IMG/VR virus record: IMGVR_UViG_3300010369_000001
Length of the DNA: 64,000 nt
From: a virus
Taxonomy: Duplodnaviria; Heunggongvirae; Uroviricota; Caudoviricetes
Reading direction: 5' to 3' (one strand)
The notes beneath the pieces are model-generated. The model made no database searches. It saw only the letters and a list, made by a program, of their open reading frames with translations, and was not told the DNA's origin. A program made the translations under genes and the position numbers. Below, piece by piece: positions 1,894 to 52,352 of the stretch. Within the stretch, counting starts at the first letter, position 1; each line of letters begins with the position of its first letter.

Positions 1894-2094
1894 CTAACGT
1901 GTGGTCTTTTTTGCGTTATCTCTAATAATAGGTATATCCTTTGGACAAGATATACCTATTTTAACGCGTGAACCTTTAATTTCTCTAACGACAACTTCAA
2001 TGTTGTCTCCAATAAAAATCTTTTCATTAACCGCTCGTGTTAAAACTAGGAACGGTTTCTTTTCTCCTTCTTCTTGTCCTTCAAATACTGGCAT
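1894..2094 (-). CDS. csrA: carbon storage regulator CsrA/RsmA homologue with 14-aa N-terminal extension
   Basis: FLVLTRAVNEKIFIGDNIEVVVREIKGSRVKIGISCPKDIPIIRDN aligns residue-by-residue with E. coli CsrA [47 protein letters not shown]; ATG at 2092-2094. Confidence 0.75.
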   Translation of the reverse strand: MPVFEGQEEGEKKPFLVLTRAVNEKIFIGDNIEVVVREIKGSRVKIGISCPKDIPIIRDNAKKTTR

Positions 2095-7397: not shown

Positions 7398-8219
7398 CTA
7401 CTCTCTCGTTTCTGCATGTAGTTCAGGCTCAGCGCCGTATAAAAGTACTTCTGTACGATTTTTGATTTTTGTAAGAATTGGAAAATCCATAATCTCAGTT
7501 CTGTTCCGCTCAAAGATTAAATCAGGGTTCGTTCGAGCTAAATGTTTTTCTGGTAGCTCATGTAACTCATCTGCTGTGAATTTTTCCAATACTCTAATTG
7601 TACGAATATAAGTACCTCGCTTTTGCTCATTTGAATAATCATTCCAATTAATCCCTTTTTCACTAAATAATTTCTCCTGTAACTGATTACAGCTAAGCTC
7701 CTGAAGAGATTTATGCGAGAAATTAGCTTGCGCAGCTGCTTGAATAGAATTACGGACTGCATCTAGCTCACGCCAGATAAAGTAGTTACCTACCTCTTCT
7801 TCGGGGTAGTTTGCAGCTCGGCAATCAAATATAGGCTCCATAGTCGCATGAACAGCCGGCGCTCCTGGTACAATAGCCATCGCATAATTAAATCGAACTG
7901 AGGCCATTGCAGCCAAAATAGAAACTATTTTAAACAGCTTCCCGTCAAAGAAAATCTGACTGTCATACTTTGGAGAATGAAACAATAATGAAATCTCGTC
8001 TGACTGGGTATAGCCTAGCTTAGCTCCAGTTTGTTTTACAAGATATTTCATAGTGTAAACCATAACTTGGTGAAACCCTTCATCAAAAGGTTTTCTAAAG
8101 TTCCTAGTTAATGTATGAAATGCTCTACCGTCTAATCGAGCTATTACTGGCACCATCGGTATAAGACTTTGCTGCCCTATTTGCTCATATATTTTCATTC
8201 TCTCCGCTAATGCTTCCAT
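7398..8219 (-). CDS. Thg1-like protein (tRNA-His guanylyltransferase / 3'-5' nucleotide polymerase family)
   Basis: VIARLDGRAFH, GYTQSDEISLLF and EKLFSEKGINWNDYSNEQKRGTYI match Thg1 VVRLDGRNFH, YGQSDEYSFVF and EILFSEFNINYNN..RKGTV, including the catalytic Asp and the D-E pair. Confidence 0.75.
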   Translation of the reverse strand: MEALAERMKIYEQIGQQSLIPMVPVIARLDGRAFHTLTRNFRKPFDEGFHQVMVYTMKYLVKQTGAKLGYTQSDEISLLFHSPKYDSQIFFDGKLFKIVSILAAMASVRFNYAMAIVPGAPAVHATMEPIFDCRAANYPEEEVGNYFIWRELDAVRNSIQAAAQANFSHKSLQELSCNQLQEKLFSEKGINWNDYSNEQKRGTYIRTIRVLEKFTADELHELPEKHLARTNPDLIFERNRTEIMDFPILTKIKNRTEVLLYGAEPELHAETRE

Positions 8220-8479: not shown

Positions 8480-9449
8480 CTAAATCAGGTCTAAAAGCTA
8501 CAATCCTGCCGAAACGAGGCTTATCTTTAATTCCGCCGTCCTGAAAGACAATATCAACGTGCCTCCCTAAATATTTCTTACGATTCTTCCACGTAATTTC
8601 AGTGCGAATGTCATAAGCTTCTTTAGCAAAACCTACGCCGCACTTTAATCCCTCTGGAAAACCCTGCTCAGCAATAATCTCCACAAAAACTGTCCCAACC
8701 TCATCAACTAGCTCGCGGTCAGCTTTCTTGTGCCCTCGCTTAGTCCGGCCAAGATTATCCTTAGTTGTATTAGTTTTCTTAGCTTCCTCAGTAAGAATCC
8801 CCTTCTGACCAAAATCTACAATCTTTGCAGAAATAGTAGTCCACTGCTTCATTTTCCAAAAGATGTTCTGTTTCGCTGTCGCGCGAGAATGAATATACGG
8901 CGATTTAGGGCAATGAAGCATAATCCCCTCCATGCCGCCTTTAACATTAAAGTCAAATTCGTTTTGCACAGCTTTCTCATTGTGACAAACAGTGTGATGA
9001 ACTGGAACTAATTTAACTTGATTTGGATCGTTTTTATCGCACCATTCCTGATAATCAACGACTCGTTCTTCAAAAGCTTTCGCCCCTTCTTTGTTTTTCC
9101 ATGTTATATTTTTCTTCCATTCAGCTACAGTCACCATATCAAAGACATACAGCTTCAGGTCTCCTACGTCTTCTTCGTGAGCCATAGCAGCAGTTATTTC
9201 ATGGAACTTCATCCCTTCAGCACATATCTCGCCATCAAGTATTACACCTGAGCTAGTAGCTAGCTCAACAATATCTTTAAACCGTTTAGTAACGACTGGA
9301 TGCAAAGGCTCCATTTTTTTAGATAGAAATTTTCCATCTACTATAAGAAATCGAACCCCATCAAACTTTGTACTCGTTAGGACGGGGTAGTTTATTTTTG
9401 AAAGTACAGGCTTATCATTTGCCGCCTGCATTGGTTTTAACATCGGCAT
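8457..9449 (-). CDS. ATP-dependent DNA ligase (T7-like)
   Basis: Motif I KFDGVR (KxDG), motif III ILDGEI, YVFDMV, EGIMLH and FWKMK correspond to T7 ligase KLDGIR, YDMV, EGLIVK and WWKMK. The track start at 9461 is TTG; the ATG at 9447-9449 is preceded by GGAGA. Confidence 0.75.
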   Translation of the reverse strand: MPMLKPMQAANDKPVLSKINYPVLTSTKFDGVRFLIVDGKFLSKKMEPLHPVVTKRFKDIVELATSSGVILDGEICAEGMKFHEITAAMAHEEDVGDLKLYVFDMVTVAEWKKNITWKNKEGAKAFEERVVDYQEWCDKNDPNQVKLVPVHHTVCHNEKAVQNEFDFNVKGGMEGIMLHCPKSPYIHSRATAKQNIFWKMKQWTTISAKIVDFGQKGILTEEAKKTNTTKDNLGRTKRGHKKADRELVDEVGTVFVEIIAEQGFPEGLKCGVGFAKEAYDIRTEITWKNRKKYLGRHVDIVFQDGGIKDKPRFGRIVAFRPDLDEPIIPA

Positions 9450-9745
9450 ATTGTTCTCCAATCATATGATAACTTATCTTCTTTTGTAAAACGTCCAAAC
9501 GTATATTCAGGGTAATCTGTTGATATAAATTTATTACTGCAGCGCTTCTTTTTTGGGTATTTAACTAAACAAACAAGCTTTAAAGCGCTGGTAAGACCGA
9601 TTAATACTTCTACCCCGCTTTTTCTTATGCGCCCAGAAACAAGTCCGTTATGTACTGCGTTATCATGCGCTGTTCTGAAACCGAAACGAACACCGTTATC
9701 TGGTAATTTAGCTAATGGCGTCGGAATTAAAGGCATCCACTTCAT
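9437..9745 (-). CDS. hypothetical protein
   Basis: 102-aa ORF. Confidence 0.4.
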   Translation of the reverse strand: MKWMPLIPTPLAKLPDNGVRFGFRTAHDNAVHNGLVSGRIRKSGVEVLIGLTSALKLVCLVKYPKKKRCSNKFISTDYPEYTFGRFTKEDKLSYDWRTICRC

Positions 9746-9747
9746 TT

Positions 9748-10008
9748 TTACTCTACTGATCTGTTAAAGTTGTTCCACGCGTCTACTACAAATTCACGAT
9801 TATTATGGGCAAAAGAAGTATGATGATAGTCTCCATTATCTAAGCGCCCTCCACAACTTACCTGAACATAAGTTCCATCAGCTGATCCAGATAATGAAGT
9901 TTCTTTTTTGCAATACTTACAGGGGTTCAAAATACCTAGTAAACCTACCGGGTGCTCTGGTTTTTTTAGTGTATCAGATTCGCGGTCTTTCGTTGCTGTT
10001 TTATCCAT
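9748..10008 (-). CDS. hypothetical Cys-containing protein
   Basis: CKYCKK...C; 86 aa. Confidence 0.4.
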   Translation of the reverse strand: MDKTATKDRESDTLKKPEHPVGLLGILNPCKYCKKETSLSGSADGTYVQVSCGGRLDNGDYHHTSFAHNNREFVVDAWNNFNRSVE

Positions 10009-10613
10009 TCTCGGTGACTATCCTCTAGCTTGAGCCAACCACTGCCGTAAACTTGCATTTTAAGCAAGTCATACATCTTATAAAGTGGTATCAATTTTTC
10101 TGGGTCTTTAGTAAACATCGGCCACGCCTGTAGCCCATTACGAATCTTTGGCCAATGAACTAGCTCAATTGCTGCAGCAGCTGCCACTTCGGGAGGTATA
10201 TTCTCTTCCCCACCTAACATTACAGCTGTACAATAAGCTGCTAGGGGCTCACTAGGGCGCCGTAACATTTTATCAACTGGAGCATTAGCAAAATCATAAA
10301 TTAGCTTAGCTGCGATAATGCACTTTGTACGAGCTTGCTCTTCTTCAATCTCCATGTAGTGACAATAACAATCCTCAGCTGCCCGCCCTGTAAGGTGACT
10401 GAACTTAATAGGGCCTGGAATTGACAATTTGTGCTTTTGCTCAACAAGAAACTGCGCCCTTATAAAATACTCAACGGTAGGGCAATTTGATTCTTCAGTA
10501 TACTGCGCAAATCGTTTTATGTCCTTTTTACTCAACCATTTACCGAGCTTTCGACCATGCCATTGACATTCCTGTTTCCAGGTCTCTTCAATTACTTCTT
10601 CAACATTTATCAT
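9966..10613 (-). CDS. hypothetical protein
   Basis: 215-aa ORF. Confidence 0.5.
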   Translation of the reverse strand: MINVEEVIEETWKQECQWHGRKLGKWLSKKDIKRFAQYTEESNCPTVEYFIRAQFLVEQKHKLSIPGPIKFSHLTGRAAEDCYCHYMEIEEEQARTKCIIAAKLIYDFANAPVDKMLRRPSEPLAAYCTAVMLGGEENIPPEVAAAAAIELVHWPKIRNGLQAWPMFTKDPEKLIPLYKMYDLLKMQVYGSGWLKLEDSHREWIKQQRKTANLIH

Positions 10614-10624
10614 CTCAATTCCTT

Positions 10625-11155
10625 TCAGTCTGAGTAGCGTGTTAAATAATTATGTTTCCACATAGTCAAAAATAAATCATAAGGTCGCTGTACTGCAACT
10701 TTACTAGTACCGTAATTGTCTATTGTCATACGACCAACAACTCGATCTGATTTAAATTTAACTTTGCTCTTAGCAAAAGCTAAGCCCCTATAGGAACCAA
10801 CACCGTCATCAAAAATAACAATATCTTCCGAGAACTCAGCTAAATGCTTGAGCACTTGCTGTATCGGCAAACTATGAAATTTTTCCCAAGTAAGCACCTT
10901 GTTATAAGCCAACACTATTGAATAGTCACACGACCACTCCGCCTCAGAAAAGCTGAGCAACTTATCACTGTCTCGGCGCGATTTAATCACTTCTTTCGGG
11001 TAAGACATGGCCGAATAATACTGCTCGCAAATCAAACTTTCAAACGTTTTTTCCTGCCGTTCTTTATATTCTTCTGGATTATCACCATGAACAACGCTTT
11101 GAAAAAAGGCATTTGGTGTATATATTTTTGGATCACTCTTCTGTTTCCTGCCCAT
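10625..11155 (-). CDS. hypothetical protein
   Basis: 176-aa ORF. Confidence 0.5.
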   Translation of the reverse strand: MGRKQKSDPKIYTPNAFFQSVVHGDNPEEYKERQEKTFESLICEQYYSAMSYPKEVIKSRRDSDKLLSFSEAEWSCDYSIVLAYNKVLTWEKFHSLPIQQVLKHLAEFSEDIVIFDDGVGSYRGLAFAKSKVKFKSDRVVGRMTIDNYGTSKVAVQRPYDLFLTMWKHNYLTRYSD

Positions 11156-12125
11156 TTATTTTTCCTCCGTCGATTAGCAACCTGTAAGCTGAGTCTAAAT
11201 TCTTACTGTTTGCAAAAGTGCTCGGATAGTTCAAAATCTCAAATTGAATCATCAACTTCTTCCAAATACTGTACGACAATTTTAGCTCACGTAATTCTTC
11301 AACCGTATATTTTGTATCTTTATAAATGTAATGCCAGTTTATTAAGGGCAAATCTACATCTATATCTGAAGCCAACAAATTTAAAGCTTTTTCAAAAGTT
11401 CTGCGATTATCTTTATCTCTAGCACTGTTTAAAGAAGGGCAGCAATTTAATAAAGTTTCTACGCCAAGCTTATTTCTAGCAACTTTATCCTCATTTGCGC
11501 GCAACCCATAATGAGAGACCATTTTTTTACCAATAGCATAAGCATTTACGTTTTGAGCACTTAGCTTAAATAGATCAGTAAAATACGGCAGAATAATGGA
11601 CAATTCTTTGAGATGTTTTAGTAATCCTGGCTGAATATGAACTTCAAAACAGCCATCGCCACTTATAATTTCCTTTTTTGTAACTTTCCCGTCTCTATCT
11701 CGAATATCAACGCTTACCACTAATCCAAACCACTCAGTGGACTCGCCCTGAGCTAAATGTATATAACCTAGCCGTTGTATGTCTTCTCGAATAACATCGT
11801 AATATTTGTGTCTGTTTTGCCGAGTATCTTTCAAGCCCATGACCACTAAATAGTCAGAAAGAGTGAATCTTATATCGGAATTTTTCCAATCGCCTCGATC
11901 ACCATTGTACTTGGTTACGAGAAGAAGGAGATAATCAAATAACTTCTTAGCGGACAAGCCAACTGTTAAAGCTGCCTCGGAAATATTACTGACAGCAATT
12001 TTTTTCCCACCATAGATAAGAGTTAGCTGCTCTCCCACCTTAGTGGGTAAGCTATCCAACGCTGATACTGCCTGAACAGCAGAGGTAGAAGCGATGGGGT
12101 AACAATCTCTTAAATTTTCTTTCAT
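11133..12125 (-). CDS. hypothetical protein; candidate origin-binding/replication initiator (by position only)
   Basis: 330-aa ORF immediately downstream (in its own orientation) of five 21-bp-spaced iterons and beside the DnaB-like helicase. No sequence motif supports the function. Confidence 0.5.
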   Translation of the reverse strand: MKENLRDCYPIASTSAVQAVSALDSLPTKVGEQLTLIYGGKKIAVSNISEAALTVGLSAKKLFDYLLLLVTKYNGDRGDWKNSDIRFTLSDYLVVMGLKDTRQNRHKYYDVIREDIQRLGYIHLAQGESTEWFGLVVSVDIRDRDGKVTKKEIISGDGCFEVHIQPGLLKHLKELSIILPYFTDLFKLSAQNVNAYAIGKKMVSHYGLRANEDKVARNKLGVETLLNCCPSLNSARDKDNRRTFEKALNLLASDIDVDLPLINWHYIYKDTKYTVEELRELKLSYSIWKKLMIQFEILNYPSTFANSKNLDSAYRLLIDGGKINGQETEE

Positions 12126-12158
12126 TTTGTTAAAATAGGTAAATTAATTCTTAAAAAT

Positions 12159-12264
12159 GTCCACAAGCTCTCGCCGGCCTTTTTGTCCACAAGCTCTCCC
12201 TAGATGTCCACAAGCTCTCGCCTCGCGTCCACAAGCTCTCGCCTCGCGTCCACAAGCTCTCGCC
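12159..12264. repeat. iteron array: five direct repeats of GTCCACAAGCTCTCGCC (one variant) at 21-bp spacing; candidate replication origin
   Basis: Repeat starts are at 12159, 12185, 12206, 12227 and 12248, in the 300-bp intergenic region between the DnaB-like helicase and ORF 11133..12125. Confidence 0.7.
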
Positions 12265-12320
12265 AGCCCTTTTTGTAAGTCCTTACTGTGTAAAGGTTTG
12301 CGAGCAACTCGAAATTTTCA

Positions 12321-12358
12321 TACTATAAGGTTAATACTATAAGGTTAAACTATAAAGT
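12321..12358. repeat. AT-rich 14-bp tandem repeat TACTATAAGGTTAA x2 plus a partial third copy; possible DNA-unwinding element next to the iterons
   Basis: Copies at 12321-12334 and 12335-12348, with a partial copy at 12349-12358. Confidence 0.55.
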
Positions 12359-12425
12359 CAAAACGGTAAATCTAATAGAAATTTTTCGCCGGCGCTTCGC
12401 GCCAGCTCAAATTTCTAACTGAATT

Positions 12426-13982
12426 TTAATTATCAGAACTCCGCATTTCTGAGACATGGGTTCTTTTCCCTTTTGCTGTTGTAGAATCCTTTTCCTTTTT
12501 CTGCCAACTTTTCTGCGGCACCTCAATCACCGCCCCCTTTACCTCAATCATGGTTCCAATGTCCCCGATCAACCTTAACCCCGTTGGAGCTATCTTCTTG
12601 TTTTCTCTGGCCTTGGTACAGGTTATCGTGCTTGTCATGTCTTCCTCCTTCAGCATACTGACATTGAAGCACGCTACATAATGCATAGCTAAGCTCTTAC
12701 TGCCCATTCCATCTGTGTGATCTAGTGTCTGCCCAGCTTTTTTCTTATTTCCCTCACCATTGGCCTGATTAACCACCCACACAGGGCAATCAAACTTATA
12801 GGCGATACTGTCCCTTATTCGCCAAGGAATACTTTGAACCGCCATCCAAAGATTTAGCTTTTTATCGTTAGAAAGCATGTCAAAAGCTAAGTCCGCAGTG
12901 TGGTCAACAACAGCTAAAGCACAATGAGATTTAATTCCCCTTTGCTTATCTGCATCCAAGGCACGCTGAATCATCATCACGATAACATCTATAGGGTCAG
13001 AAGCCGCGCTTCTTATTTCTGGTTTTGTAAGGTCGATAATGCGCAAATTCTTAGCTATTTCCTTCATTGCCATTGCTTCACGCTCAACTTCACCAAAAAC
13101 ACCACTAAAATACGTTTTGCTGATTTCTAAGTCTCTAGCTGTAGGAGCTCTAGACGAAGTTTTAGGAGTTGGATCCTTTCCGCTGATTTTCGCCAGCGGA
13201 ACTTTACCTATATATGACACAAAACGATTAGTAACCTTGTCCATCCCATCTTCTGTCGTTATGTAGAAAACCTTCCCAAGGGAAGCTCTCCCTAAAGAAA
13301 TTCGATACCTGTTCATCTGCAATTCTGCCCATTCAGCTGCCACTTGAACACTACAACACGTTTTTGCGGCACCAGTGGGCCCCAAAAAGCTGTACATCTC
13401 ACGGTTGGCAAATCCCCCAACATATTTATCGATGAAGGAAATTCCAGTAGGCTGAAACTGAGCTAGAGCATTCCTAGCTGCCCTCATGCTCTCTGACATC
13501 GGATTGAAATCATCATCCGTAAACTGGGTTCCAGCTCTGGCTTTGTCCAAAGCGTTGGCATAATTCCTTAACACATCGCCTACTTCTTCTGTCGGAAGCT
13601 CAGGAAGGCCCAAAATCAGCTCCTGGTGAGCAAGTTGCGAAATTAAGGTCCCAGACCAGTAGGAAAGCTCAGCGGCCGTTAGAATCGAGCTATGAGCGTT
13701 TTGGACTAAATTGTACAATTCTATCCATTCTTCTTCATCTAGCTCAGGTGTCCCATTTTGCGCAGCTTGACTCAATCTTTCTTGGATAGACAGCAGAAGA
13801 TTGTGTTTTCCTGGGACGGTTTTCAGTTTCTGTACCGCGTCTGCTACGGTCTCGTAAAGGATGGCCAGGTCACGACGCCCCAGAAAGGCCGATGAAGTGA
13901 TCTGACCTGTAAATATTTGCCAATTCTCCAGTGAGGAGATCGCTGCTTGCAGCAGCATCGTTTTTCTCTCATTTGTTATCAT
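12426..13982 (-). CDS. DnaB-like replicative DNA helicase
   Basis: QPTGISFIDKYVGGFANREMYSFLGPTGAAKT resembles the DnaB helicase-domain entry (TGF..LD....G....L.......GKT) and carries a Walker A. VVDHTADL looks like a Walker B, and VVNQANGEG like helicase motif H3. Confidence 0.65.
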   Translation of the reverse strand: MITNERKTMLLQAAISSLENWQIFTGQITSSAFLGRRDLAILYETVADAVQKLKTVPGKHNLLLSIQERLSQAAQNGTPELDEEEWIELYNLVQNAHSSILTAAELSYWSGTLISQLAHQELILGLPELPTEEVGDVLRNYANALDKARAGTQFTDDDFNPMSESMRAARNALAQFQPTGISFIDKYVGGFANREMYSFLGPTGAAKTCCSVQVAAEWAELQMNRYRISLGRASLGKVFYITTEDGMDKVTNRFVSYIGKVPLAKISGKDPTPKTSSRAPTARDLEISKTYFSGVFGEVEREAMAMKEIAKNLRIIDLTKPEIRSAASDPIDVIVMMIQRALDADKQRGIKSHCALAVVDHTADLAFDMLSNDKKLNLWMAVQSIPWRIRDSIAYKFDCPVWVVNQANGEGNKKKAGQTLDHTDGMGSKSLAMHYVACFNVSMLKEEDMTSTITCTKARENKKIAPTGLRLIGDIGTMIEVKGAVIEVPQKSWQKKEKDSTTAKGKRTHVSEMRSSDN

Positions 13983-14423
13983 TTATTTAAAAGTGACTGC
14001 TGGCATCGCGTTAGCTGAATACCCGCCGTTTTTTGGGGGTTGCCAGGAGCGACAATTGCTGGAATTGACTATCGGTATTGTTTTAAGAGGCTCGAATTTT
14101 TGCTCAATAATATTTTTTTCTATATGGTACCTAAGCCAAGCAGCTTGCCAGTAGGTGATAGGTACTGCATAGTTATTAGTTGAGTCACTAATTGTTAAAC
14201 AAGCTTGCGTTATGGCAAAAGAACGAAACCACGCCATAAGCCCTGTTACAATTTCCAGACCAATTAATCCAGTCGTTATTTTTGAAACATAGAGTTTTTT
14301 AACGCCAATTTCACCGTTATTTTCCCATCTAATTTCACCGTTAATTGTCTGGGTTATGATGGCGTTAAATAGGTCAGTTACTGTTTTGCTCATCGTTATT
14401 CCGTGTTTGATGGGTAATATCAA
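13983..14423 (-). CDS. hypothetical protein
   Basis: 146-aa ORF. Confidence 0.45.
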   Translation of the reverse strand: MILPIKHGITMSKTVTDLFNAIITQTINGEIRWENNGEIGVKKLYVSKITTGLIGLEIVTGLMAWFRSFAITQACLTISDSTNNYAVPITYWQAAWLRYHIEKNIIEQKFEPLKTIPIVNSSNCRSWQPPKNGGYSANAMPAVTFK

Positions 14424-14661
14424 CGCAATCTTTATATGTCCAGCCGCGCACTGCTAGAAATGATTGTGCATCTCGACAGCATTTAAATACTGCATAAGGT
14501 ATTAAATCGGCATAGTCACTATCGGCTACCGGATCCGGAAGTTTTTCAACAATTCCGTAAAGTGGCCCTTCCACCTTTACAATAACTACGCCCTTATTAT
14601 CTGTGGCCTTTTGCTGAAAATCAGCTGAAAAATCAAAAGCTTCTTTTGTGTCAATAAACAT
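14374..14661 (-). CDS. hypothetical protein
   Basis: 95-aa ORF. Confidence 0.45.
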   Translation of the reverse strand: MFIDTKEAFDFSADFQQKATDNKGVVIVKVEGPLYGIVEKLPDPVADSDYADLIPYAVFKCCRDAQSFLAVRGWTYKDCVDITHQTRNNDEQNSN

Positions 14662-14680
14662 TTATTTTTGGTTTTGTTAA

Positions 14681-14710
14681 ATGAAAAAGGGGAGGCAAAA
14701 ATGCCTCCCC
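14681..14710 (-). terminator. rho-independent terminator (minus strand)
   Basis: GGGGAGGCA-TTTT-TGCCTCCCC hairpin (14689-14710) is followed on the minus strand by TTTTTCATTT, 20 nt after the stop of 14732..15466. Confidence 0.6.
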
Positions 14711-14731
14711 TTAAATAGTTCATACAGTTTT

Positions 14732-15466
14732 TTAGTCTTGCGGATCAAAGACCACATACATCCCAACAAGAAGGCCATCGGCAATACCTTGATCGATAAG
14801 TTGACTGACCAGCCCTTCTCGCGTTAATTGCTTGATTAAATCTTCTATGGAGATGCCGTTGTCATTGCAGTAAGCATTAATTACCGGATTCTCACGTAAG
14901 GACTTTTCTAAGAAGTCTGTAAATGATGTAACTCGTGTAACACCAACATCATCCGTCTTTTTACATGTACGAACATCGGTGCAGCTTCGTTGTCTTACTA
15001 AACGCTTAAGCTCCTGTTTAAAAACCCTTTTATTTTCTGTTGTTGTAGCTGCAACTGCTTTCACAGGTGCTTTAGCTCGAGTTATTGAAGAGCCTTTTAT
15101 AGGTATATTATTTGGTTTAGCTGATTTCTTGACCGCAGCTCCTCCAGCTGGCGCAATCATATTCGCAATTTGTTTAGCGGTAATATGGCGTTTAAAAACT
15201 CTATAGACGTTCTTAATTACGTTGGAATCGCAATAAACTACAGCTGGGCAGGTCGTATCTTCACGATCAAGTCCCTTAAGTTTCCGTACGTAAGCTTTCA
15301 CTGCCCGATCTACAACAGCTGCCGGAAAGCATTCACGGCCCCATTTAAGAGCTTGCTGAACTTGCCTTACATGCCAGTTCATCATTAGTGAAATTTCCGT
15401 TGTGTCGTGACCTCCCAAATAGAGTTCCCATGCTTGAGTGAACTTTTCTAATCTTTCGTTTGTCAT
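14732..15466 (-). CDS. hypothetical protein, possible DNA-binding protein (N-terminal HTH-like segment, basic central region)
   Basis: DTTEISLMMNWHVRQVQQAL is helix-turn-helix-like; the middle of the protein is K/R/A-rich. Confidence 0.45.
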   Translation of the reverse strand: MTNERLEKFTQAWELYLGGHDTTEISLMMNWHVRQVQQALKWGRECFPAAVVDRAVKAYVRKLKGLDREDTTCPAVVYCDSNVIKNVYRVFKRHITAKQIANMIAPAGGAAVKKSAKPNNIPIKGSSITRAKAPVKAVAATTTENKRVFKQELKRLVRQRSCTDVRTCKKTDDVGVTRVTSFTDFLEKSLRENPVINAYCNDNGISIEDLIKQLTREGLVSQLIDQGIADGLLVGMYVVFDPQD

Positions 15467-15569
15467 AATAATTTTTGTATTGTAAAGGTGTTATAAGGGT
15501 TTTTACGGGGACACAATCCCCGCTATTAACGTTACATAATATGTTAAAAGACGCTAAGCGTCAAGATGC

Positions 15570-17288
15570 TTACGGATTCCAAGTTACGCCATCAACTTTT
15601 GTCATAAAGTCATTGACGTCTTGAGTGTTACCTGCAGCATCCAGATACGGGAAGCCGTTGATGTCAACAGCTGTCACATTATCTTCAGCTACGTAAACAT
15701 CCGAAGTCGAAGCTGGCATACGGCCAGGCGTCTCCGGCGGAACATTAACCATATCAGCAACAACTGGCGGCATTGCGTACTGCATAGGCATCTGCGGCGG
15801 AGCAACAGCCTGCATATTAGGGGCTTGCGGCTGTTGCTGGTGAGTTGCGTTTGGAATTTGTGCCAGTTGCACCATCTGCGTTGGAGGCGACGGGTGTTGC
15901 ACCATCTGCATAGGTTGACCAGGATGTGTTGTAGGAAGCACGTACGGCTGTTGCTGAACTTGCTGCTGCATCTGCGGCGGTTGAGGAGTTTGCTGCACCT
16001 GAACTGGCTGCTGAACTTGCACCGACACCGGCTCTCCCTCAAAAATCGACGTATCATAAATGAACGCCTGTGGAACGGAACCAAAAATACTAGCAATTTC
16101 CGGGTCATTAAGATGCTGTTCAAAATCAGTACGAGCGTATGCGAGCTCAAAGATAGCTTTAGCGTCAGAAAATGCCATGGCTAGTTCTTTGATCATCGTG
16201 TGATCGTCCATATAGTTGATAGTATCTCCAACGTGCATCGGAATCTTCGCATAATAATCATTAGACGGCGTTCCTTGCTGAGTAAGCAAATTACGAGGCA
16301 GCTGGAATGGTTGCCCAGGAGGCCCGAGTTGCTGACCGTTGAAATTGTACAGCGCACCAGCTACAGTGCCGCTCATGCCGTCAATATCGGTGCTACTTTT
16401 CACCCCAGGAACAGGACAGGCCGCACCACGATGTTTCCAAGCGTAGAAAACAGCTAGCTGATCGGGATTAACCGGATTCGGATAAAACCAATCACCATTA
16501 GGGCCGCGAGTATTCATGGCTTTAGTGAGATCGTTCCATATTTGTTGCGAAACAGCTACTATGCTGATCTTCTCATCCGGCCCAAGACCCTTACCGAGTG
16601 TCTGCGGGTTGTAAAAACACTCCTGCATCGGAATTCTATTACGAGTGTCACGATTGTACTCTTCTTTAGAATTAAGAAGCATGATACTGGCCATTAGATA
16701 AAAACGTCGGAGATTCGGCAAATAATTTCCGCCGGTCTTGCCGCCAGCTGACTTTTCGCGGAAATTTAATAATCCAAACCATGGCGAACTTTGAGCAAAC
16801 TTCTTTTCCCGGTTCATACTAGTAACGAAGTTATACAAAGCCATATAGGGAGACGAAATAAAATCTTCACTTCCAGTTGTTACCTCACCGTACGGGCAAA
16901 AGGTAATTGCTTTTGTGAAATCGGTTCCAGCGCGACAGACAAGCGGTGTTGCGTAAGCCCATTCATCGAATTGACTCTCATCGCCATCATACCTAGCAGG
17001 CCCAAAAATGGACGGTTCTTGAGAAGAGAACATCGGAAGCGGGCACCATGCATGAACTGCGGATTTAGGGCCACCACCGCCGCCAATAATTACAGGCTCA
17101 TAATGAGACTGCGCATCCTGACTCATCCACTTGTTAGCTCGTGCACCAAAATCGACGGATTTTTGAGCTGGCGGAACATAACGTTTCATTTTTACTTGTG
17201 GTACATTAACGGATGTGGCTTGCGGACGTTGTACTACCTGTGCTGCTGGTTTCATAGTTTGATTTAAAGTTTTTACTTGTGTTGGCAT
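15570..17288 (-). CDS. hypothetical protein with Gly5 tract and Q/P-rich low-complexity linker
   Basis: 572 aa with GGGGGPKS and VQVQQPVQVQQTPQPPQMQQQVQQQ...; an AT-rich upstream region lies at 17289-17386. Confidence 0.55.
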   Translation of the reverse strand: MPTQVKTLNQTMKPAAQVVQRPQATSVNVPQVKMKRYVPPAQKSVDFGARANKWMSQDAQSHYEPVIIGGGGGPKSAVHAWCPLPMFSSQEPSIFGPARYDGDESQFDEWAYATPLVCRAGTDFTKAITFCPYGEVTTGSEDFISSPYMALYNFVTSMNREKKFAQSSPWFGLLNFREKSAGGKTGGNYLPNLRRFYLMASIMLLNSKEEYNRDTRNRIPMQECFYNPQTLGKGLGPDEKISIVAVSQQIWNDLTKAMNTRGPNGDWFYPNPVNPDQLAVFYAWKHRGAACPVPGVKSSTDIDGMSGTVAGALYNFNGQQLGPPGQPFQLPRNLLTQQGTPSNDYYAKIPMHVGDTINYMDDHTMIKELAMAFSDAKAIFELAYARTDFEQHLNDPEIASIFGSVPQAFIYDTSIFEGEPVSVQVQQPVQVQQTPQPPQMQQQVQQQPYVLPTTHPGQPMQMVQHPSPPTQMVQLAQIPNATHQQQPQAPNMQAVAPPQMPMQYAMPPVVADMVNVPPETPGRMPASTSDVYVAEDNVTAVDINGFPYLDAAGNTQDVNDFMTKVDGVTWNP

Positions 17289-20064: not shown

Positions 20065-20511
20065 TTATTGCAGATCATCTTCCTCATCATCGTCGTCGTA
20101 CGACCAATCTTCCTCATCATCCCAATCTTCCTCATCATCGTCGTCGTACGACCAATCTTCCTCATCATCATCATCATCGTCGTCGTACGACCAATCTTCC
20201 TCATCATCATCGTCCTCCTCAAGGACTTCTTTGATAATTAGATCAATGTCCGGGGACAGATCAACAGATTGAAGGTTACTTACAGCTTCCCTTCGACGAG
20301 CATATTCAGCTTTAGTGTCTTCAAGATATTTGGGATCAAAATCAGGATGTTCTTCATTGGCGTAGCGATCAGCTGTTTCGATCTTAGTTATATGACACAT
20401 AGCTTCTTCAATTACAGCCTCACGATCCCAATATAATTTGAACCGCTCATCATTTACAATACCTTTATCAATAGTAAAAACTGTATAGCCCGCGCTACTC
20501 CAATTACTCAT
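20065..20511 (-). CDS. hypothetical protein with C-terminal acidic tandem repeats (EEDWSYDDDD)n
   Basis: The track ORF 20065..20721 overlaps 20504..20923 extensively. The ATG at 20509-20511 (MSNWSSAGY...) avoids the overlap. C-terminus: EEDDDDEEDWSYDDDDDDDEEDWSYDDDDEEDWDDEEDWSYDDDDEEDD. Confidence 0.5.
   Translation of the reverse strand: MSNWSSAGYTVFTIDKGIVNDERFKLYWDREAVIEEAMCHITKIETADRYANEEHPDFDPKYLEDTKAEYARRREAVSNLQSVDLSPDIDLIIKEVLEEDDDDEEDWSYDDDDDDDEEDWSYDDDDEEDWDDEEDWSYDDDDEEDDLQ
20077..20215. repeat. intragenic tandem repeat (three imperfect copies of a ~30-bp core CGTCGTCGTACGACCAATCTTCCTCATCAT, period 39-48 bp)
   Basis: Core copies at 20091-20120, 20139-20168 and 20178-20207; they encode the acidic EEDWSYDDDD repeats. 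Confidence 0.6.
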
Positions 20512-20923
20512 TGGTCTCTTCCTCTCTCCAGTTGTAGTACATTTCATCACTCCAGTAATATGTTGAAAATCCAACCATATAATGTTTAATTCGTTCAAAA
20601 AGCCAAGCTTTCGCCTCCCTATTGGTCTTGAAGCTAGCTGATTGCTCTCCCGCGCGAGAATCACACTCACTATTAATATATTCAAAAGTAACGTACCACA
20701 CTTGGTCAGTCGGCACATCACCTGCTATATCATGATAACTAATACTACCTAATGATAGGTTAAATGGGCCTACGAGATCCCATGTAGGGCGTATATCTCT
20801 CATGGATTCTCTATATTCAAAGGCCAAGGGGAATTCAAGCTTTGTTATCAACATTTGCAATTTCCTTTTGTACGAGTTCGCGCCAATCTTTAACGCTCTC
20901 ACCATATCTAAAACCACAGCCAC
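20504..20923 (-). CDS. hypothetical protein
   Basis: 139-aa ORF; its start overlaps the 3' end of the polymerase gene. Confidence 0.45.
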   Translation of the reverse strand: MAVVLDMVRALKIGANSYKRKLQMLITKLEFPLAFEYRESMRDIRPTWDLVGPFNLSLGSISYHDIAGDVPTDQVWYVTFEYINSECDSRAGEQSASFKTNREAKAWLFERIKHYMVGFSTYYWSDEMYYNWREEETNE

Positions 20924-23900
20924 TATCTGTTCCCAGAAAATATGGGCCGCGAGATAAATCTAGCTCTCCAGTTAAACTTCTAGGCCAAACTGGAATATCT
21001 TCAACCATGCACTTAGGTATGACGTTATCTATAACTTCTTCAACGTGCTGGTAGGGAACTTCCAGCAGGATTTCATCATGGACTTGTAAATTGATGTTGT
21101 ACCAAATTTTATTTGCACCACGATAATAGTATAAATTAGTCAAACACTGCCTCACATATTCTGCAACGAAATTTTGCATTGGAAAATTCTTAAATACTCG
21201 TTCAAGATCAGCCATCTTATCGGCCGGCAAATATTCATGTTTAGGAATTCTCCTGTATCTTCCTGCTACGCCTACGATATAGCCAGTATTGAGAACCGCA
21301 TTAGCTGCATCTTGAAGAAACTCCATAGCTTTAGGATAGGTTTTCTTGACAGTATTCATAACTTGTTTAACTTCGTCTACCGTTACAAAGCATTTCTCTT
21401 CTTTAACGGCTTCAGCAATTGCTGCAGCTCCTCGCCCGTACATCAACCCAAAAATAATTGATTTAGCTACAATCCTAAGATGCTTCATCCCTACAGCCTC
21501 TAATCCAGCTTTAGTGGGGTCGCAGTCCAAGTGGAAAGCAGCGCAGCATAGTGCAGAATGGATGTCATAGAAATCGGGATCATCTTCGGGCAGTAAGTTA
21601 CGCTGGACGTGAGCTAACATCTGATTGTCGTCGGCCAAAATGGCGCAAGCCGCTAGCTCGGCCCCCTTAATGTCTGACCAAACCAGCATATGTCCCGGTG
21701 ATGCTCTCAGAATAGTCCTGAGCGGAGCGATATAGGCATCTCCCACAATGGCTTTATAGTCAGCCTCTCTCCGTTTACTAATATTCTGCAGCGCAGGACG
21801 GGCTGAGGCGGCTCTACCAGTATCAAGGGTTTGGTACAAGTGAGTTCGTAATTTCCCGTCGTCACAAATATAGGCTGCGAGTCCTTGTTCTGTGGCGTTT
21901 CCTTCATCGTCCACATCAGCTTCTTTGAGAACATAGCTAAGTACCTTTCTAAGTAATTTATAACTACGAATATTTGCTAACAACTGACTTATGAACTTAT
22001 CGGACGGCTTTTTAGACGCCTCAAATTTAACTTCATATTGATGAGATAGCATCGCAATAGAGCGAGAATCACAAGCTGGTACAGCTAAATCGCCGTCCTC
22101 TTTGACCGCTTTCTCCCAAGGCATTCCTTTTTGAGTGGAATACAGCGGAGTTAAATTTAAAGCTAACGCACCTACTGGCCTTAGCTGCCCTCCTTGTTTA
22201 GCAAAATTATATTTTTCACCAAACAATAATTCTCGTAACTGAAATGCTGAATTGAGGTTAAGTGTGCCCCACTTAGTATCTCGCTTGATCTTAGCTAGTA
22301 TTTTCTCGCATTTATCCGAATAAAGAGATGCCAGATCATTCATCCTTGCCCTATCAACAACGAGACCGGTACAGTTCATCTCCAAGAACACAGGCCATTG
22401 TTGCATTGAATTAGTAAAAGGAATCCAGCAGTCTAGACCATAGGGATCACAACTAAGGTTCTCCATATAGAATAAAGCTAACCTGCGGGTGACATCGGCA
22501 TCATAACAAGCATATGGGATCAAAATATGATCAGGACACTGTGCATACCCAGGCAATTCTTTTCTTTTAATTCCTTGTTTCTTACAATAGGCAGTTGCCC
22601 ACTCATCCATTGGTACATCATACCTGGGCACTGTTGGGCATCTTAACATAAACTGACCAGTGAGAGAATGATCATCAGTTTCGTTATAGGCATGAGCCGC
22701 CATTGCCGTATCAAACAAACAAGGCTTACCGGCAGCTATCGTAGCCTTATATTCTTCAGCAGTAGTTGGAATTGGAGGCAATGTCCAAATATTCGGAATA
22801 AAACCATTGTAAGCTAGCGTCTCAATGTCAGAATCAAGGAAATGACCGCAAACAATATAATTCATCCATAGCCAGTAGAAATTACTTTTAACTTCAGCTA
22901 AGTCTTTATCGCTAAAGCCTTTAGAGTAATCATAAAGAATTTCACCTTTTTCTTCTAAGCTTTTAGCTAGCTTATTGAAATGACTATTAGCTGCTACTCC
23001 GCCAATAGTTTCTTCCTCGGGCATAGGATACATCCTGGCAAAGTTTTCACCTAGCTCACTTTTAAGGACTATCGTAGCTGCCGTCTTATGCTTCCAGCTA
23101 ATTTGAATAGTTCTTAATTGCGCATTGTCGTTTTGAGGATGTTGTCCGCTCCATTCACCGTCTATTGCAATTATTTTGTCGGTACATTCAGTCATGATAC
23201 GGCTCATTAATTCACGCCATTCTTGAATGTTATGTACGGCAATATGTTCTATATCGTCAGTAACTGTAATACCTTGTATGGTGTTCGCGAAGAGTCCGAA
23301 AGCTGACTTGTATTTAGCCTCCTCTTCTGAGTCACTTGATCGAATTACTGCGTGCGGTGAAGTGCATGCAACACATTTAGCTGTTTTTTCGTTTCCGTTG
23401 AAGTCGACATATGTGTAGTCTAATACGGAGCCAGTAAGTTCGGTAATTTTAGCTTTATGCCCAAATACGGCTTTAACAGCTTCAGCACCAAACAAAAGTA
23501 TGTAGGAAGGTGCAACTTGTTGTATTTCATATTGCAGGATTGGGAACGATTCAGCTAACCAGCCAGCTTTTAATCTAGAGCCCTTATTTGCGTCTTCTGG
23601 GTGTAGACATTTGAACAAATAAGTAACATACCAGCTAGATGGGTCAACTCCATAGGCTTTAGAGGTGTCCAAGAAGAATTGTCCGGCTTTACTTCCGGTA
23701 TTAAACACACTTGGTATAAAGTGAGGGTCTTCAATGTCCTCTACATCAGCTGGTCGTGGCATTTTACCGACTATCATAATTGGAGCGGGTTGTGGGCCTT
23801 TGTTAACTGGCTGGCTATATATGTGTCCGCCACAAATGGGTACATTACTAAATACTTCACCTTTAGCGTCAATTTGCCAAGGCAGGCTTTCAACTGATCC

Positions 23901-24044
23901 GTCAAGTATAGCATCGAGACATTCCTGCTCACTAGCATAATTAGGAAGTATATAAGCAGCCAGTCGGGGCCCGAGAATTCGGGCCGCGATTGGTTCTTTA
24001 GCTTCTACGGTTTCATATAAACCGCATTCAAATTCGTCAGCCAT
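20835..24044 (-). CDS. family A DNA polymerase (Pol I/T7-like) with 3'-5' exonuclease domain and N-terminal uracil-DNA-glycosylase-like (family 4-like) domain
   Basis: Pol A motif A LVWSDIKGAELAA (DYSQIELR-like), motif B RIVAKSIIFGLMYGRG (R..K..NFG..YG) and motif C LQVHDEILLEV; Exo I IIAIDGEW. The N-terminal region (aa ~85-235) reads APIMIVGKMPRP...GSKAGQFFLD...YVTYLFKC...SPH, which resembles family-4 UDG blocks. Confidence 0.85.
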   Translation of the reverse strand: MADEFECGLYETVEAKEPIAARILGPRLAAYILPNYASEQECLDAILDGSVESLPWQIDAKGEVFSNVPICGGHIYSQPVNKGPQPAPIMIVGKMPRPADVEDIEDPHFIPSVFNTGSKAGQFFLDTSKAYGVDPSSWYVTYLFKCLHPEDANKGSRLKAGWLAESFPILQYEIQQVAPSYILLFGAEAVKAVFGHKAKITELTGSVLDYTYVDFNGNEKTAKCVACTSPHAVIRSSDSEEEAKYKSAFGLFANTIQGITVTDDIEHIAVHNIQEWRELMSRIMTECTDKIIAIDGEWSGQHPQNDNAQLRTIQISWKHKTAATIVLKSELGENFARMYPMPEEETIGGVAANSHFNKLAKSLEEKGEILYDYSKGFSDKDLAEVKSNFYWLWMNYIVCGHFLDSDIETLAYNGFIPNIWTLPPIPTTAEEYKATIAAGKPCLFDTAMAAHAYNETDDHSLTGQFMLRCPTVPRYDVPMDEWATAYCKKQGIKRKELPGYAQCPDHILIPYACYDADVTRRLALFYMENLSCDPYGLDCWIPFTNSMQQWPVFLEMNCTGLVVDRARMNDLASLYSDKCEKILAKIKRDTKWGTLNLNSAFQLRELLFGEKYNFAKQGGQLRPVGALALNLTPLYSTQKGMPWEKAVKEDGDLAVPACDSRSIAMLSHQYEVKFEASKKPSDKFISQLLANIRSYKLLRKVLSYVLKEADVDDEGNATEQGLAAYICDDGKLRTHLYQTLDTGRAASARPALQNISKRREADYKAIVGDAYIAPLRTILRASPGHMLVWSDIKGAELAACAILADDNQMLAHVQRNLLPEDDPDFYDIHSALCCAAFHLDCDPTKAGLEAVGMKHLRIVAKSIIFGLMYGRGAAAIAEAVKEEKCFVTVDEVKQVMNTVKKTYPKAMEFLQDAANAVLNTGYIVGVAGRYRRIPKHEYLPADKMADLERVFKNFPMQNFVAEYVRQCLTNLYYYRGANKIWYNINLQVHDEILLEVPYQHVEEVIDNVIPKCMVEDIPVWPRSLTGELDLSRGPYFLGTDSGCGFRYGESVKDWRELVQKEIANVDNKA

Positions 24045-32692: not shown

Positions 32693-33382
32693 TTAACCGC
32701 AAATAATTTTTGCTAGCTCAATCGGATCTACCGAATTACCTTCTTTATCTATTACCCGAATCACATTGCCCGATATTTCATCGGCCAGCATCAGCTTACC
32801 TTGATCGTCTGTGCCAAACTCTAGCTTAAAGTCAATCAACTCCAAACCTTTCTCTCGAATAATACTAGCTAGCAAATTGCCAACTTGACGAGTATAACCG
32901 TCGCAAAGATCATATTGTTCTTCTGTTAGCTTACCTAGTGCAATAGCTGCCTCAGCGTTAATTCGCGGATCACCTAGTGCATCGTCCTTAAGCGTAGCTT
33001 CAATCAAGCCATGTAACTCAAGTCCTTTCTCCACACCATACATCTTACAGAATGATCCCCAAGCTTTATCTCGCCAGATAAACTCGACCGGAATAATTTT
33101 TACGTGCTTTACGGTCAAGATGCGAGCTTCATCAACACCATTTACACGCATACCACCAGCACAAATAAAGTGTGTTGGTATTCCTTCTTTCTCAATCAGA
33201 GGAAAGAAGTAAGCACTTAGCTTCGCTGCTGCAATCCCGGACTCGTGCATTTGCAAGCCAGTTTGATTGGCTCCAGGGTCAAATTTACCAGTTGTAGCAT
33301 CAGTGCATACATCATCTTTAAAGCATAAATGACATCTTTCCGTATTATCTGCCGGAATGGCAATTTCTTTTGTTTTTCCCAT
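32693..33382 (-). CDS. purC: phosphoribosylaminoimidazole-succinocarboxamide (SAICAR) synthase PurC-like
   Basis: GIPTHF..., ELIDFKLEFG and LADEISGNVIRVIDKE are colinear with E. coli PurC GIPTQM..., LVDFKLEFG and LGDEFSPDGSRLWDKE. Confidence 0.75.
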   Translation of the reverse strand: MGKTKEIAIPADNTERCHLCFKDDVCTDATTGKFDPGANQTGLQMHESGIAAAKLSAYFFPLIEKEGIPTHFICAGGMRVNGVDEARILTVKHVKIIPVEFIWRDKAWGSFCKMYGVEKGLELHGLIEATLKDDALGDPRINAEAAIALGKLTEEQYDLCDGYTRQVGNLLASIIREKGLELIDFKLEFGTDDQGKLMLADEISGNVIRVIDKEGNSVDPIELAKIICG

Positions 33383-33417
33383 CTTTTCTTTTTGTTAAAT
33401 TTTGTTAAAATTATAAT

Positions 33418-34155
33418 ATGATTGGTTTTATTTATAAACATACTTCTCCCTCAGGTAAAAGTTATATCGGCCAAACTACTTTAGTACCTAAAATACGCTG
33501 GAAGAAAGGCAGTAACTATAAAGGCTGCACTGCTTTTTATAGCGCAATTAAAAAGTATGGTTGGGAAAATTTTATAAGTGAAATTTTAGAAGAAATCGAA
33601 TTTGATGATATTGCTGTTTTAAATAAACTTGAAGAAAAATATGTAATTCAATTTAATACATTAGCTCCGTATGGTTATAATTTAAAAGCTGTTGGCGAAA
33701 ACACCTTAACAGCTGAAATAACTAAAGTACGAAAAACTAAACATTATGTTTTACATAAAGAAAAACAAGTTTCAGTTGCATCATTAGCTAAAGAGTACGG
33801 AATAAACCCACAAACATTATTTAATCGTGTGTTTAAATTTAATTGGGCATTAGAGAGGGCCTTAACTGAGCCAGCTACCGGACGTAAAGGTAAAAAGCAC
33901 ACAGATGAAAGTAAGAAGAAACAAAGTGACGCAAAGAAAGGAAAGAAAATGTCTAAAGAGTTTAAAGAAAAACAACGTACTATACACATCAAACACATTA
34001 TTGAATATAAGGGAAAACGACAACCAATAGTTGATTTTGCAAAACAATACGGAATTACACCGTCTACCCTTAGAGATCGTATTTTAAAATTTAATTGGCC
34101 AGTTGCAAAAGCAATAGAAACACCAATACGAAAGAAAATAAACTCTAAACTTTGA
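33418..34155 (+). CDS. GIY-YIG homing endonuclease with tandem C-terminal DNA-binding repeats
   Basis: The N-terminus IGFIYKHTSPSGKSYIGQT carries the GIY...YIG motif. Two C-terminal repeats follow: AKEYGINPQTLFNRVFKFNWALERAL and AKQYGITPSTLRDRILKFNWPVAKAI. It lies on the plus strand between purC and sbcC and overlaps the sbcC stop. Confidence 0.8.
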   Translation: MIGFIYKHTSPSGKSYIGQTTLVPKIRWKKGSNYKGCTAFYSAIKKYGWENFISEILEEIEFDDIAVLNKLEEKYVIQFNTLAPYGYNLKAVGENTLTAEITKVRKTKHYVLHKEKQVSVASLAKEYGINPQTLFNRVFKFNWALERALTEPATGRKGKKHTDESKKKQSDAKKGKKMSKEFKEKQRTIHIKHIIEYKGKRQPIVDFAKQYGITPSTLRDRILKFNWPVAKAIETPIRKKINSKL

Positions 34156-51386: not shown

Positions 51387-51676
51387 GACAATACGGGTGG
51401 CCCAATTACTGCCACATGAATAGGAACACCTTCTAATTCATACGGTATGCTAATTTCTGGGGCACTATTACAGTAAACATAAAGACATCCCTCTCCTACA
51501 CCAACACACTGAAACCAACCATCCGTTGAATGAATGTCGCCGCGAATACAGTGTTCATATAAGGTTTGAACTAAGCTATAAGCTTTTTCTTGAAGCAGTA
51601 CCTTCTCTTCAATATATATTTCTTTTAGTCGAGCTTTAAGCTTCCTCTTCTCTTTTGATAGAACTGTTTGCATCAT
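51383..51676 (-). CDS. hypothetical protein
   Basis: 97-aa ORF. Confidence 0.4.
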   Translation of the reverse strand: MMQTVLSKEKRKLKARLKEIYIEEKVLLQEKAYSLVQTLYEHCIRGDIHSTDGWFQCVGVGEGCLYVYCNSAPEISIPYELEGVPIHVAVIGPPVLS

Positions 51677-52352
51677 AAATTTTCCAATCGTTAGCTAACA
51701 TGTGGCGCGTTTGCGGTTCATATACTACTACTCTATCATTAAGATCGCAGCGCATAATAGGACGACAATCACCTGCTGAATATAGGTATTTCGGGCAGGC
51801 ATACGGGCATTGCTCGGTTATGCCTTGCTTTTCCCAAAATTCACGAACTACTTGCCATCCGTTGTTCATGGCCTGACAAGCCTCTAACCAGTTCATATGC
51901 TCGACTTCATGATTATTTATTTGATCAACAGTCGTGCTTTCCTGTAATTCATGCATAACCGTCGCAGCTATGCTACTTGATTGTGCCATGAGGGCGCGCA
52001 GTAAAGCATATGTGTCCACGTATGAGCCTCTAGATAACATTTCTCTAAGCGCTACCTCTAGTGCTAGTTTTACTCTTGGGGTTAAAGTCGGGCTTGCCTC
52101 CTCACAGCACGCGGACTCATTATTCGAAAAGCCAATGTATTTTTCGACACTTTTACGAAGTTGCGATTCAGTAACGTCTGCAGTGGCGCACACCTTATTT
52201 AACGCATGTAGCGCAGGGCCCCCCACCTTAGCGACTGCGAGTAAGATATGCTCCGTACCGATGTAGTTACAATTTCGCCGCTGAACTTCCTCTTTAGCGG
52301 CCATCATGATCTCATTAACTATAGGTGTGTAATTATTACTTGTAATCATCAT
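51636..52352 (-). CDS. Clp N-terminal-domain (Clp_N repeat) protein
   Basis: Two Clp_N-type repeats: AAKEEVQRRNCNYIGTEHILLAVAKVGGPALHALNKV and RVKLALEVALREMLSRGSYVDTYALLRALMAQ. Compare ClpA/ClpB N-domain ..TVEHLLLALL... Confidence 0.65.
   Translation of the reverse strand: MMITSNNYTPIVNEIMMAAKEEVQRRNCNYIGTEHILLAVAKVGGPALHALNKVCATADVTESQLRKSVEKYIGFSNNESACCEEASPTLTPRVKLALEVALREMLSRGSYVDTYALLRALMAQSSSIAATVMHELQESTTVDQINNHEVEHMNWLEACQAMNNGWQVVREFWEKQGITEQCPYACPKYLYSAGDCRPIMRCDLNDRVVVYEPQTRHMLANDWKIYDANSSIKREEEA

Follow-up and report, generated by a model that had tools for sequence, protein, structure and literature searches.

The 64,000 bp stretch of phage DNA analysed here (the window) contains a 300 bp non-coding gap (12126-12425) between two minus strand ORFs, a DnaB-like helicase gene and a gene (rep) for a putative replication initiator. 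Read as transcribed, the region runs from the helicase gene through a hairpin, an AT-rich repeat, a spacer and five iterons, and 34 bp further on comes the ATG of ORF 11133-12125. The features of this region are as follows.

12426..13982, minus strand: gene for a DnaB-like (RecA-fold) replicative helicase, 518 aa, immediately upstream of the proposed origin along transcription
12377..12416, minus strand: GC-rich hairpin between the helicase stop codon and the proposed origin (RNA fold)
12320..12364, no strand assigned: AT-rich 14 bp tandem repeat, proposed DNA-unwinding element (TRF, stability and conservation)
12265..12319, no strand assigned: conserved spacer from the AT-rich repeat to the iterons (MAFFT alignment of 8 loci)
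12159..12264, minus strand: array of five directly repeated iterons, with GGCGAGAGCTTGTGGAC as the unit in the sense of rep and 4-9 bp of spacer added to it
11133..12125, minus strand: rep, predicted WH1-WH2 winged-helix Rep_3/pi-like replication initiator, 330 aa (Pfam and structural model)
10625..11155, minus strand: conserved partner ORF, 176 aa, overlapping the rep stop codon by 23 nt

The two flanking ORFs named in a preliminary description of this DNA are both present, and since both lie on the minus strand the iterons are upstream of the start codon of 11133-12125. The same description took the gap for the only sizeable intergenic region of the module; it is indeed among the larger ones, but other gaps of 220-380 bp appear on a crude ORF map, on which not all gaps are real and a spurious plus strand ORF masks the iteron gap. 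That ORF (12157-12342, 61 aa) was rejected as a gene, since it arises from reading the repeats as coding sequence. The N-terminal extension called for the related protein P0004 (GDLWATFGDPWETLGDLWATFG, GDLWATFG...; L012 471-608) is likewise spurious and is translated iteron array.

Gene content of the window

The window comes from a large phage and covers a block of genes for replication and nucleotide metabolism, almost all of them on one strand (about 80 of 86 ORFs). A protein identical to its Rep is found on a 225,445 bp contig, and the phage lineage is apparently virulent, with a genome of about 225 kb. A blastn search of positions 9000-16000 against GenBank phages gave no match, and a scan of IMG/VR found no relative. 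Profile searches identified genes for an ATP-dependent ligase, SbcCD, RIIA, ThyX and the large terminase, as well as the following.

20835-24044, minus strand: family-A DNA polymerase, 1069 aa, with an N-terminal uracil-DNA-glycosylase-superfamily domain
54206-55633, minus strand: nicotinamide phosphoribosyltransferase (NAMPT), one member of an NAD salvage pair
52349-53326, minus strand: NUDIX protein, the other member of this pair
7398-8219, minus strand: Thg1-like tRNA-His guanylyltransferase (Pfam 1.9e-29, phrog_4717 3.9e-82)

The fusion of a UDG-type domain to a family-A polymerase is also present in two relatives (L001 and L008). No tRNA genes were found within the 64 kb window, in spite of the Thg1-like enzyme. 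Clp_N and Tad2-like (Thoeris anti-defence 2) domains occur together in one protein (51636-52352, minus strand), and a Tad2-like match also lies close to the rep cassette of the relative L010. A gene for a CsrA-family small RNA-binding regulator (1894-2094, minus strand) has a counterpart in the distant relative L021 (8278-8502), a few kb downstream of rep. ORF 20065-20721 contains an internal 39/48 bp tandem repeat (20076-20221), which is translated into an acidic low-complexity stretch. The least stable duplex of the entire window lies at 33382-33440, at the divergent junction of a SAICAR-synthetase gene (32693-33382, minus strand) and a helix-turn-helix gene (33418-34155, plus strand) that is the only sizeable plus strand gene in mid-window; this junction might serve as a hub for promoters or represent another AT-rich element. 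A Shine-Dalgarno 4-mer core is present at -20 to -5 of only 16 of the 58 window gene starts, which suggests a host lineage sparing in Shine-Dalgarno use, perhaps a Bacteroidota-like one; an A-rich TTAACAAA-like sequence precedes several gene starts.

The iterons and their flanking elements

The sequence GTCCACAAGCTCTCGCC occurs in four exact copies that start at 12159, 12206, 12227 and 12248, all on the plus strand, and a fifth copy at 12185 (GTCCACAAGCTCTCCCT) differs from it by two mismatches. Start-to-start spacings are 26, 21, 21 and 21 bp, the 26 bp interval belonging to the rep-proximal copy, so the five copies of the preliminary description stand (one of them imperfect) but its uniform spacing of exactly 21 bp does not. 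The sequence has no other copies in the 64 kb; the expected number by chance is 0.08 at up to three mismatches, and none of 100 shuffles reaches five. No reversed copies were found at the same three-mismatch limit. The iterons are all oriented alike relative to rep, at distances of 34-139 bp upstream from its ATG, and are proposed to be the binding sites of Rep. In a nearest-neighbour scan they are the most stable duplex part of the gap.

The AT-rich repeat, by contrast, is the least stable part of the interval; its least stable 40 bp and 60 bp segments start at 12314 and 12320, respectively, and the same scan places 12314-12379 among the lowest 0.08-0.11% of window segments. TRF reports this repeat at 12320-12355 with a period of 14 bp, 2.6 copies and 95% matches, in agreement with the 2.6 copies described before, and it can be followed to 12364 (2.6-3.2 copies). 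Its units, read in the sense of rep, are TTTATAGTTTAACC, TTATAGTATTAACC and TTATAGTATGAAAA, and it lies about 55 bp from the iteron array. The AGTTAT/TAGTAT motif does not recur in other intergenic parts of the window, which argues against its being a general phage promoter. The spacer contains two rep-sense blocks, GCTCGCAAAC (12296-12309) and CTTACAAAAAGGGCT (12265-12280), and when 8 loci are aligned with MAFFT, CG.AA and TTA.AAAAtGGgCT prove to be kept immediately before the first iteron in spite of the divergence of the iterons themselves; TTACAAAA[AT]GG occurs once in the window. On the far side of the AT-rich repeat, the GC hairpin has a predicted folding energy of -24 kcal/mol (z = -5.2; equalled by 0 of 200 shuffles). 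It resembles a terminator and may insulate the origin, and it was not called by a consensus terminator scan.

Consensus promoter and terminator scans gave matches at the level of chance, and the single sigma-70-like site of the gap falls inside the AT-rich repeat; given the scarcity of Shine-Dalgarno-like cores (above), the host may not use promoters of the sigma-70 type. The sole match to the DnaA box (TTATCCACA) in the origin region is an 8/9 match, TTGTCCACA at 12183-12191, that is formed by the edge of an iteron, and DnaA-box-like matches in the whole window (22, with 17 expected) are at chance level. The GTCCACA core of the iterons was also considered as a DnaA box and rejected, as it matches at only 6-8 of 9 positions, such matches occur at chance frequency, and the iterons of related phages do not resemble it. 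No inverted repeat or half-iteron operator was found in 11900-12600 at a seed of 8. Cumulative GC skew decreases monotonically from one end of the window to the other and does not change course at 12.2 kb; it is a weak test here because about 80 of the 86 ORFs share a strand.

The Rep protein

Rep matches Pfam PF01051 (Rep3_N) over residues 48-175 with 23.0 bits (E 1.2e-4), a marginal match that is 0.6 bit over the gathering score of 22.4. An exhaustive HMMER search returned 282 homologues, and 21 of the 60 that were aligned match Rep3_N independently, the best of them at 4.8e-9. A structural model made with the 60-sequence alignment (pLDDT 91.6; a single-sequence AF2 model, at pLDDT 36, was useless) has the tandem WH1-WH2 winged-helix fold with an extra N-terminal beta segment. 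The top Foldseek matches of this model are RctB domains 2-3 (E 4.5e-6), and 212 of the 330 residues superpose on pi. By tblastn against plasmids, Rep matches the RepB-family initiator of Streptococcus thermophilus plasmid pSMQ-316 (25% identity, E 3e-6), and homologues are present on two plasmids of a cockroach-gut deltaproteobacterium.

Other searches returned little. No member of the 60-sequence family matches NCBIfam; PHROGs contains no match for this Rep, with phrog_775 weakly matched by 7 of the 60 relatives (best 1.4e-4); PDB sequence searches with Rep and with the family profile gave nothing meaningful; tblastn against GenBank phages found no match; and a word-indexed protein search returned Rep itself only. 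Neither Pfam nor PHROGs matches Rep to an initiator of the λ O type. Rep_3-like folds are rare in viral databases yet present there, as two metagenomic phage proteins in BFVD show. The assignment of Rep as a predicted Rep_3-type initiator is supported by its sequence and strongly by its modelled fold; the preliminary description had called it an initiator from its position, and the Rep3_N match, the winged-helix fold and the pSMQ-316 RepB homologue now give that call a footing of its own.

Related loci

Loci with Rep proteins 30-47% identical to this one were compared (L006/7, L008/18, L010, L012, L013, L014, L015/16 and L021). One cassette order is common to nine distinct related phage loci and is shown by every locus with upstream sequence: a DnaB-like helicase gene, a GC hairpin, AGTTAT-type tandem repeats, the conserved spacer, two to five iterons, and rep. 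The hairpin is at the equivalent place in L008, L010, L012, L013, L015/16 and L021, and a gene of about 500 aa occupies the matching position before the origin in L008, L010, L014, L015/16 and L021. In every phage relative the cassette lies within the replication gene block, near the helicase and polymerase genes. The AT-rich repeats of the relatives consist of 2-4 tandem 13-15 bp units with a (C)TAGT(T)AT core, the last of which ends in ...GGAAATTTT, and their spacers keep the blocks CG.AA and TTACAAAAtGGGC. Their iterons are 2-5 direct repeats of uniform orientation with a basic spacing of 21 bp (22-23 bp in L021), and have the following units.

L006: CCTACCTCTGGGTGACG
L008: CCCACCCCTGGTGGACG
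L010: GATGTGAGGTTGGTAACAC
L014: ATCAGGTACCTTCGCCAA
L015/16: GGTTAGGGTCGTCATGTGC
L021: TTTACTACACCCTTGTTAA

The iteron sequence therefore varies from phage to phage, whereas the AT-rich repeats and spacer are constant. This is the pattern expected of a cognate initiator-site pair placed beside a shared unwinding or loading element, and such a conserved arrangement is hard to reconcile with chance repeats. That the iteron sequence shifts between phages along with Rep would give indirect support to specific binding of the one by the other; the rank correlation between Rep identity and iteron identity (Spearman 0.28, p 0.16) is unfit as evidence, the iteron register being uncertain. Outside these loci, a more distant, plasmid-like relative (L022), whose genes include ParA, a tyrosine recombinase and a toxin of the ParE type, has four 22 bp iterons beside rep. 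Scans of genomes and metagenomes yielded one MAG contig binned as planctomycete and two metagenome contigs. The MAG contig (JBEBTM010000253.1; L013 / L017) is 6.6 kb long and carries a phage-type rep cassette. Its MAG is labelled Thermogutta terrifontis, and mis-binning of phage DNA into this planctomycete genome is the probable reason for its presence there.

The number of iterons also varies among assemblies. In the same phage, the 225 kb contig has four copies, and the window and another contig have five; between the related loci L015 and L016 the count is two versus three. Three k-mer assemblies (Logan contigs) end inside the perfect 21 bp tandem, and L011 probably ends inside or near it in the same way. 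The sites of copy-number change or assembly break are 12227-12264 in the window, 9883-9967 in L001, and position 1 in L002, L003 and L005. The contig ends at the tandem are likely k-mer assembly breaks, and true iteron copy-number polymorphism between samples is possible. This variation and the breaking of k-mer assemblers at the array are what one would expect if the repeats had no sequence-specific function and were the product of slippage, an assembly artefact or part of a non-coding RNA. That explanation is hardly credible, however, and the comparative data effectively refute it, since analogous arrays of other sequence lie at the same position in the nine distinct related loci. The array was moreover recovered in independent assemblies from several samples, the region matches no Rfam family, and its single-strand fold is no better than those of shuffles, the terminator-like hairpin excepted.

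The helicase and the partner ORF

The product of 12426-13982 matches phrog_19, "DnaB-like replicative helicase", at 3.5e-14, and its translation contains a Walker-A-like GPTGAAKT and a Walker-B-like LAVVDH, so the earlier assignment as a DnaB-like helicase is borne out at modest strength. A gene caller run on the same phage favours a start that gives a protein of 510 aa. The window's copy has no Pfam match, its orthologues in L014, L015 and L016 have weak or faint matches to DnaB_C/AAA_25, and a PDB sequence search with the helicase gave nothing meaningful.

A separate GGAGG, located within the 3′ end of rep, precedes the ATG of the overlapping 176 aa ORF. Homologues of this ORF lie directly after rep in L006, L008, L010, L011 and L014, and in two proteins the partner is fused in frame to Rep (P0007, E 8e-13; P0009, 50% identity, E 3e-50). 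It has no match in Pfam, PHROGs or, by profile, the PDB. The partner ORF is a candidate co-factor of Rep, and one might guess that it is an adaptor or loader between Rep and the helicase.

These gene associations bear on an alternative with no origin at this site, in which the Rep-like protein has been domesticated as a winged-helix transcription factor and uses the repeats merely as its operator, for autoregulation or for a switch in the helicase-rep operon. In its favour, the iterons do occupy the 5′ leader or promoter region of rep, autorepression is known from Rep_3 proteins, and a DnaA box and a GC-skew signal are both absent. Yet the operators of Rep_3 dimers are inverted repeats, of which there are none here; five helically phased direct repeats beside a conserved AT-rich tandem of extremely low stability have the architecture of an origin; and the steady linkage to a helicase gene and the fusion or coupling of the partner ORF to rep fit replication better than regulation. 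An operator without an origin therefore seems improbable.

Comparison with known replication origins

By predicted fold and by layout, the putative origin is supported as belonging with the iteron replicons of the Rep_3/pi/RepE/RepA group (class-A theta). R6K pi, F RepE and pPS10 RepA have two winged-helix domains, as does the modelled phage Rep, although similarity in sequence to the R6K gamma/pi, F RepE-ori2, pPS10 RepA-oriV and pSC101 RepA systems is at the limit of detection. The phage differs from the R6K-type plasmids in having a period of 21 rather than 22 bp, in having no recognised DnaA box, IHF-like site or inverted-repeat operator, and in its carrier, a phage of about 225 kb that encodes its own DnaB-like helicase beside the origin. 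The absence of a recognised DnaA box also sets it apart from origins of the oriC type and from the DnaA-assisted iteron origins of pSC101, pPS10, RK2, F and P1.

A class-A theta replicon consists of an AT-rich region followed by 3.5 iterons of 22 bp, upstream of rep (PMC4490491), and pSMQ-316, whose RepB is matched by the phage Rep, is listed in this review as theta-replicating. The order of AT-rich repeat, direct repeats of about 21 bp and rep in the phage is that of these class-A replicons of lactic acid bacteria (pCI305/pWV02 type; pSMQ-316 RepB), which agrees with the theta-type layout given in the preliminary description. The lactic replicons differ in having two small inverted repeats over the rep RBS and -35, which were not found in the phage, and in being plasmids.

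Among phages, λ O acting at ori-λ and SPP1 G38P acting at oriL are initiators that bind a direct-repeat array by an AT-rich stretch and recruit a DnaB-type helicase, and in SPP1 the helicase, G40P, is encoded by the phage and works with a loader. In λ and SPP1, however, the repeats lie inside the initiator gene, whereas the iterons here are intergenic, and λ O and SPP1 G38P belong to other initiator families than the plasmid Rep_3 fold predicted here. RctB of Vibrio cholerae chromosome 2, acting at ori2, is likewise a plasmid-derived iteron initiator that serves a large replicon, but it is much larger, with four domains, 11/12-mers, 39-mers and Dam control, none of which is seen here. P1 oriR, with RepA, is likewise an iteron origin of a phage genome with a winged-helix-type Rep; it serves maintenance of the plasmid prophage and is flanked by par and incA, and no such genes or control locus are seen in the window.

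The P1 example raises the question of whether the phage origin might similarly serve plasmid-like maintenance, with copy control by handcuffing, and lytic replication start elsewhere. Iterons with an initiator of the Rep_3 type are a typical plasmid feature, distant relatives of this Rep are plasmid-like (L022 with its ParA, toxin-antitoxin pair and recombinase, and the two deltaproteobacterial plasmids), and iteron copy number differs among samples. The set of genes is nevertheless one that large virulent phages carry (PolA, ligase, SbcCD, RIIA, ThyX and NAD salvage), and no partition, integrase or repressor gene is present among about 50 ORFs scanned in 64 of the roughly 225 kb; the sole, weak candidate for such a gene is the sub-threshold helix-turn-helix ORF 33418-34155 (plus strand). 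All phage relatives, in addition, have the cassette embedded in the replication block, beside the genes for helicase and polymerase. A role confined to a phage-plasmid state is accordingly considered unlikely.

Proposed mechanism and implications

It seems quite probable that the repeats are a Rep-dependent iteron-type replication origin of this apparently virulent phage of about 225 kb. In the mechanism proposed, Rep monomers would bind the five 17 bp iterons, one each, with a phasing of about two helical turns, and the resulting nucleoprotein array would bend and stress the DNA. The 14 bp AT-rich tandem repeat about 55 bp away, as the least stable duplex of the region, would then melt, and the phage's own DnaB-like helicase would be loaded onto the opened strands, a step in which the small ORF overlapping the end of rep may aid. 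Rep bound at the iterons probably represses rep as well, since the only promoter-like site is on one side of them and the start codon of rep on the other. The analysis itself shows the repeats, the modelled Rep fold, the shared architecture with iterons particular to each phage, and the low duplex stability; the steps from Rep binding and melting to the loading of the helicase, like autoregulation and the theta mode of replication, are inferred. Since large phages commonly change over to recombination-dependent replication, the origin may matter only early in infection, and as the window covers 64 of about 225 kb, other origins may exist.

A more speculative reading, put forward tentatively as possible rather than probable, is that this clade of large or jumbo phages acquired an initiator of the plasmid Rep_3 type and assembled a two-part origin around it, in which fast-evolving, phage-specific iterons are combined with a clade-wide (C)TAGT(T)AT/TTACAAAAtGGGC loading site and initiation is independent of host DnaA and DnaC. 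The loading site would then be more than generic AT-rich DNA and would be read in a sequence-specific manner by the helicase, by the 176 aa partner, which some relatives have as a fusion with Rep, or by Rep itself bound to single-stranded DNA, for which RK2 TrfA and F RepE are precedents.

The design of such an origin is already known, indeed textbook, and the conceptual surprise is thus modest; what is unusual is the carrier, a large phage with its own helicase and a small partner ORF. It is very rare for the replication origin of a large uncultivated phage to be known, and this locus offers a concrete candidate origin together with its candidate initiator. The helicase gene, origin, rep and partner ORF, about 3.4 kb in all, make up a compact candidate mini-replicon or vector cassette for a host that seems to make little use of Shine-Dalgarno sites. 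With variable iterons beside conserved AGTTAT-type repeats, natural variation can be used to ask which origin parts confer specificity, and a plasmid-type Rep/iteron module presumably works here inside the replication block of a virulent-looking phage.
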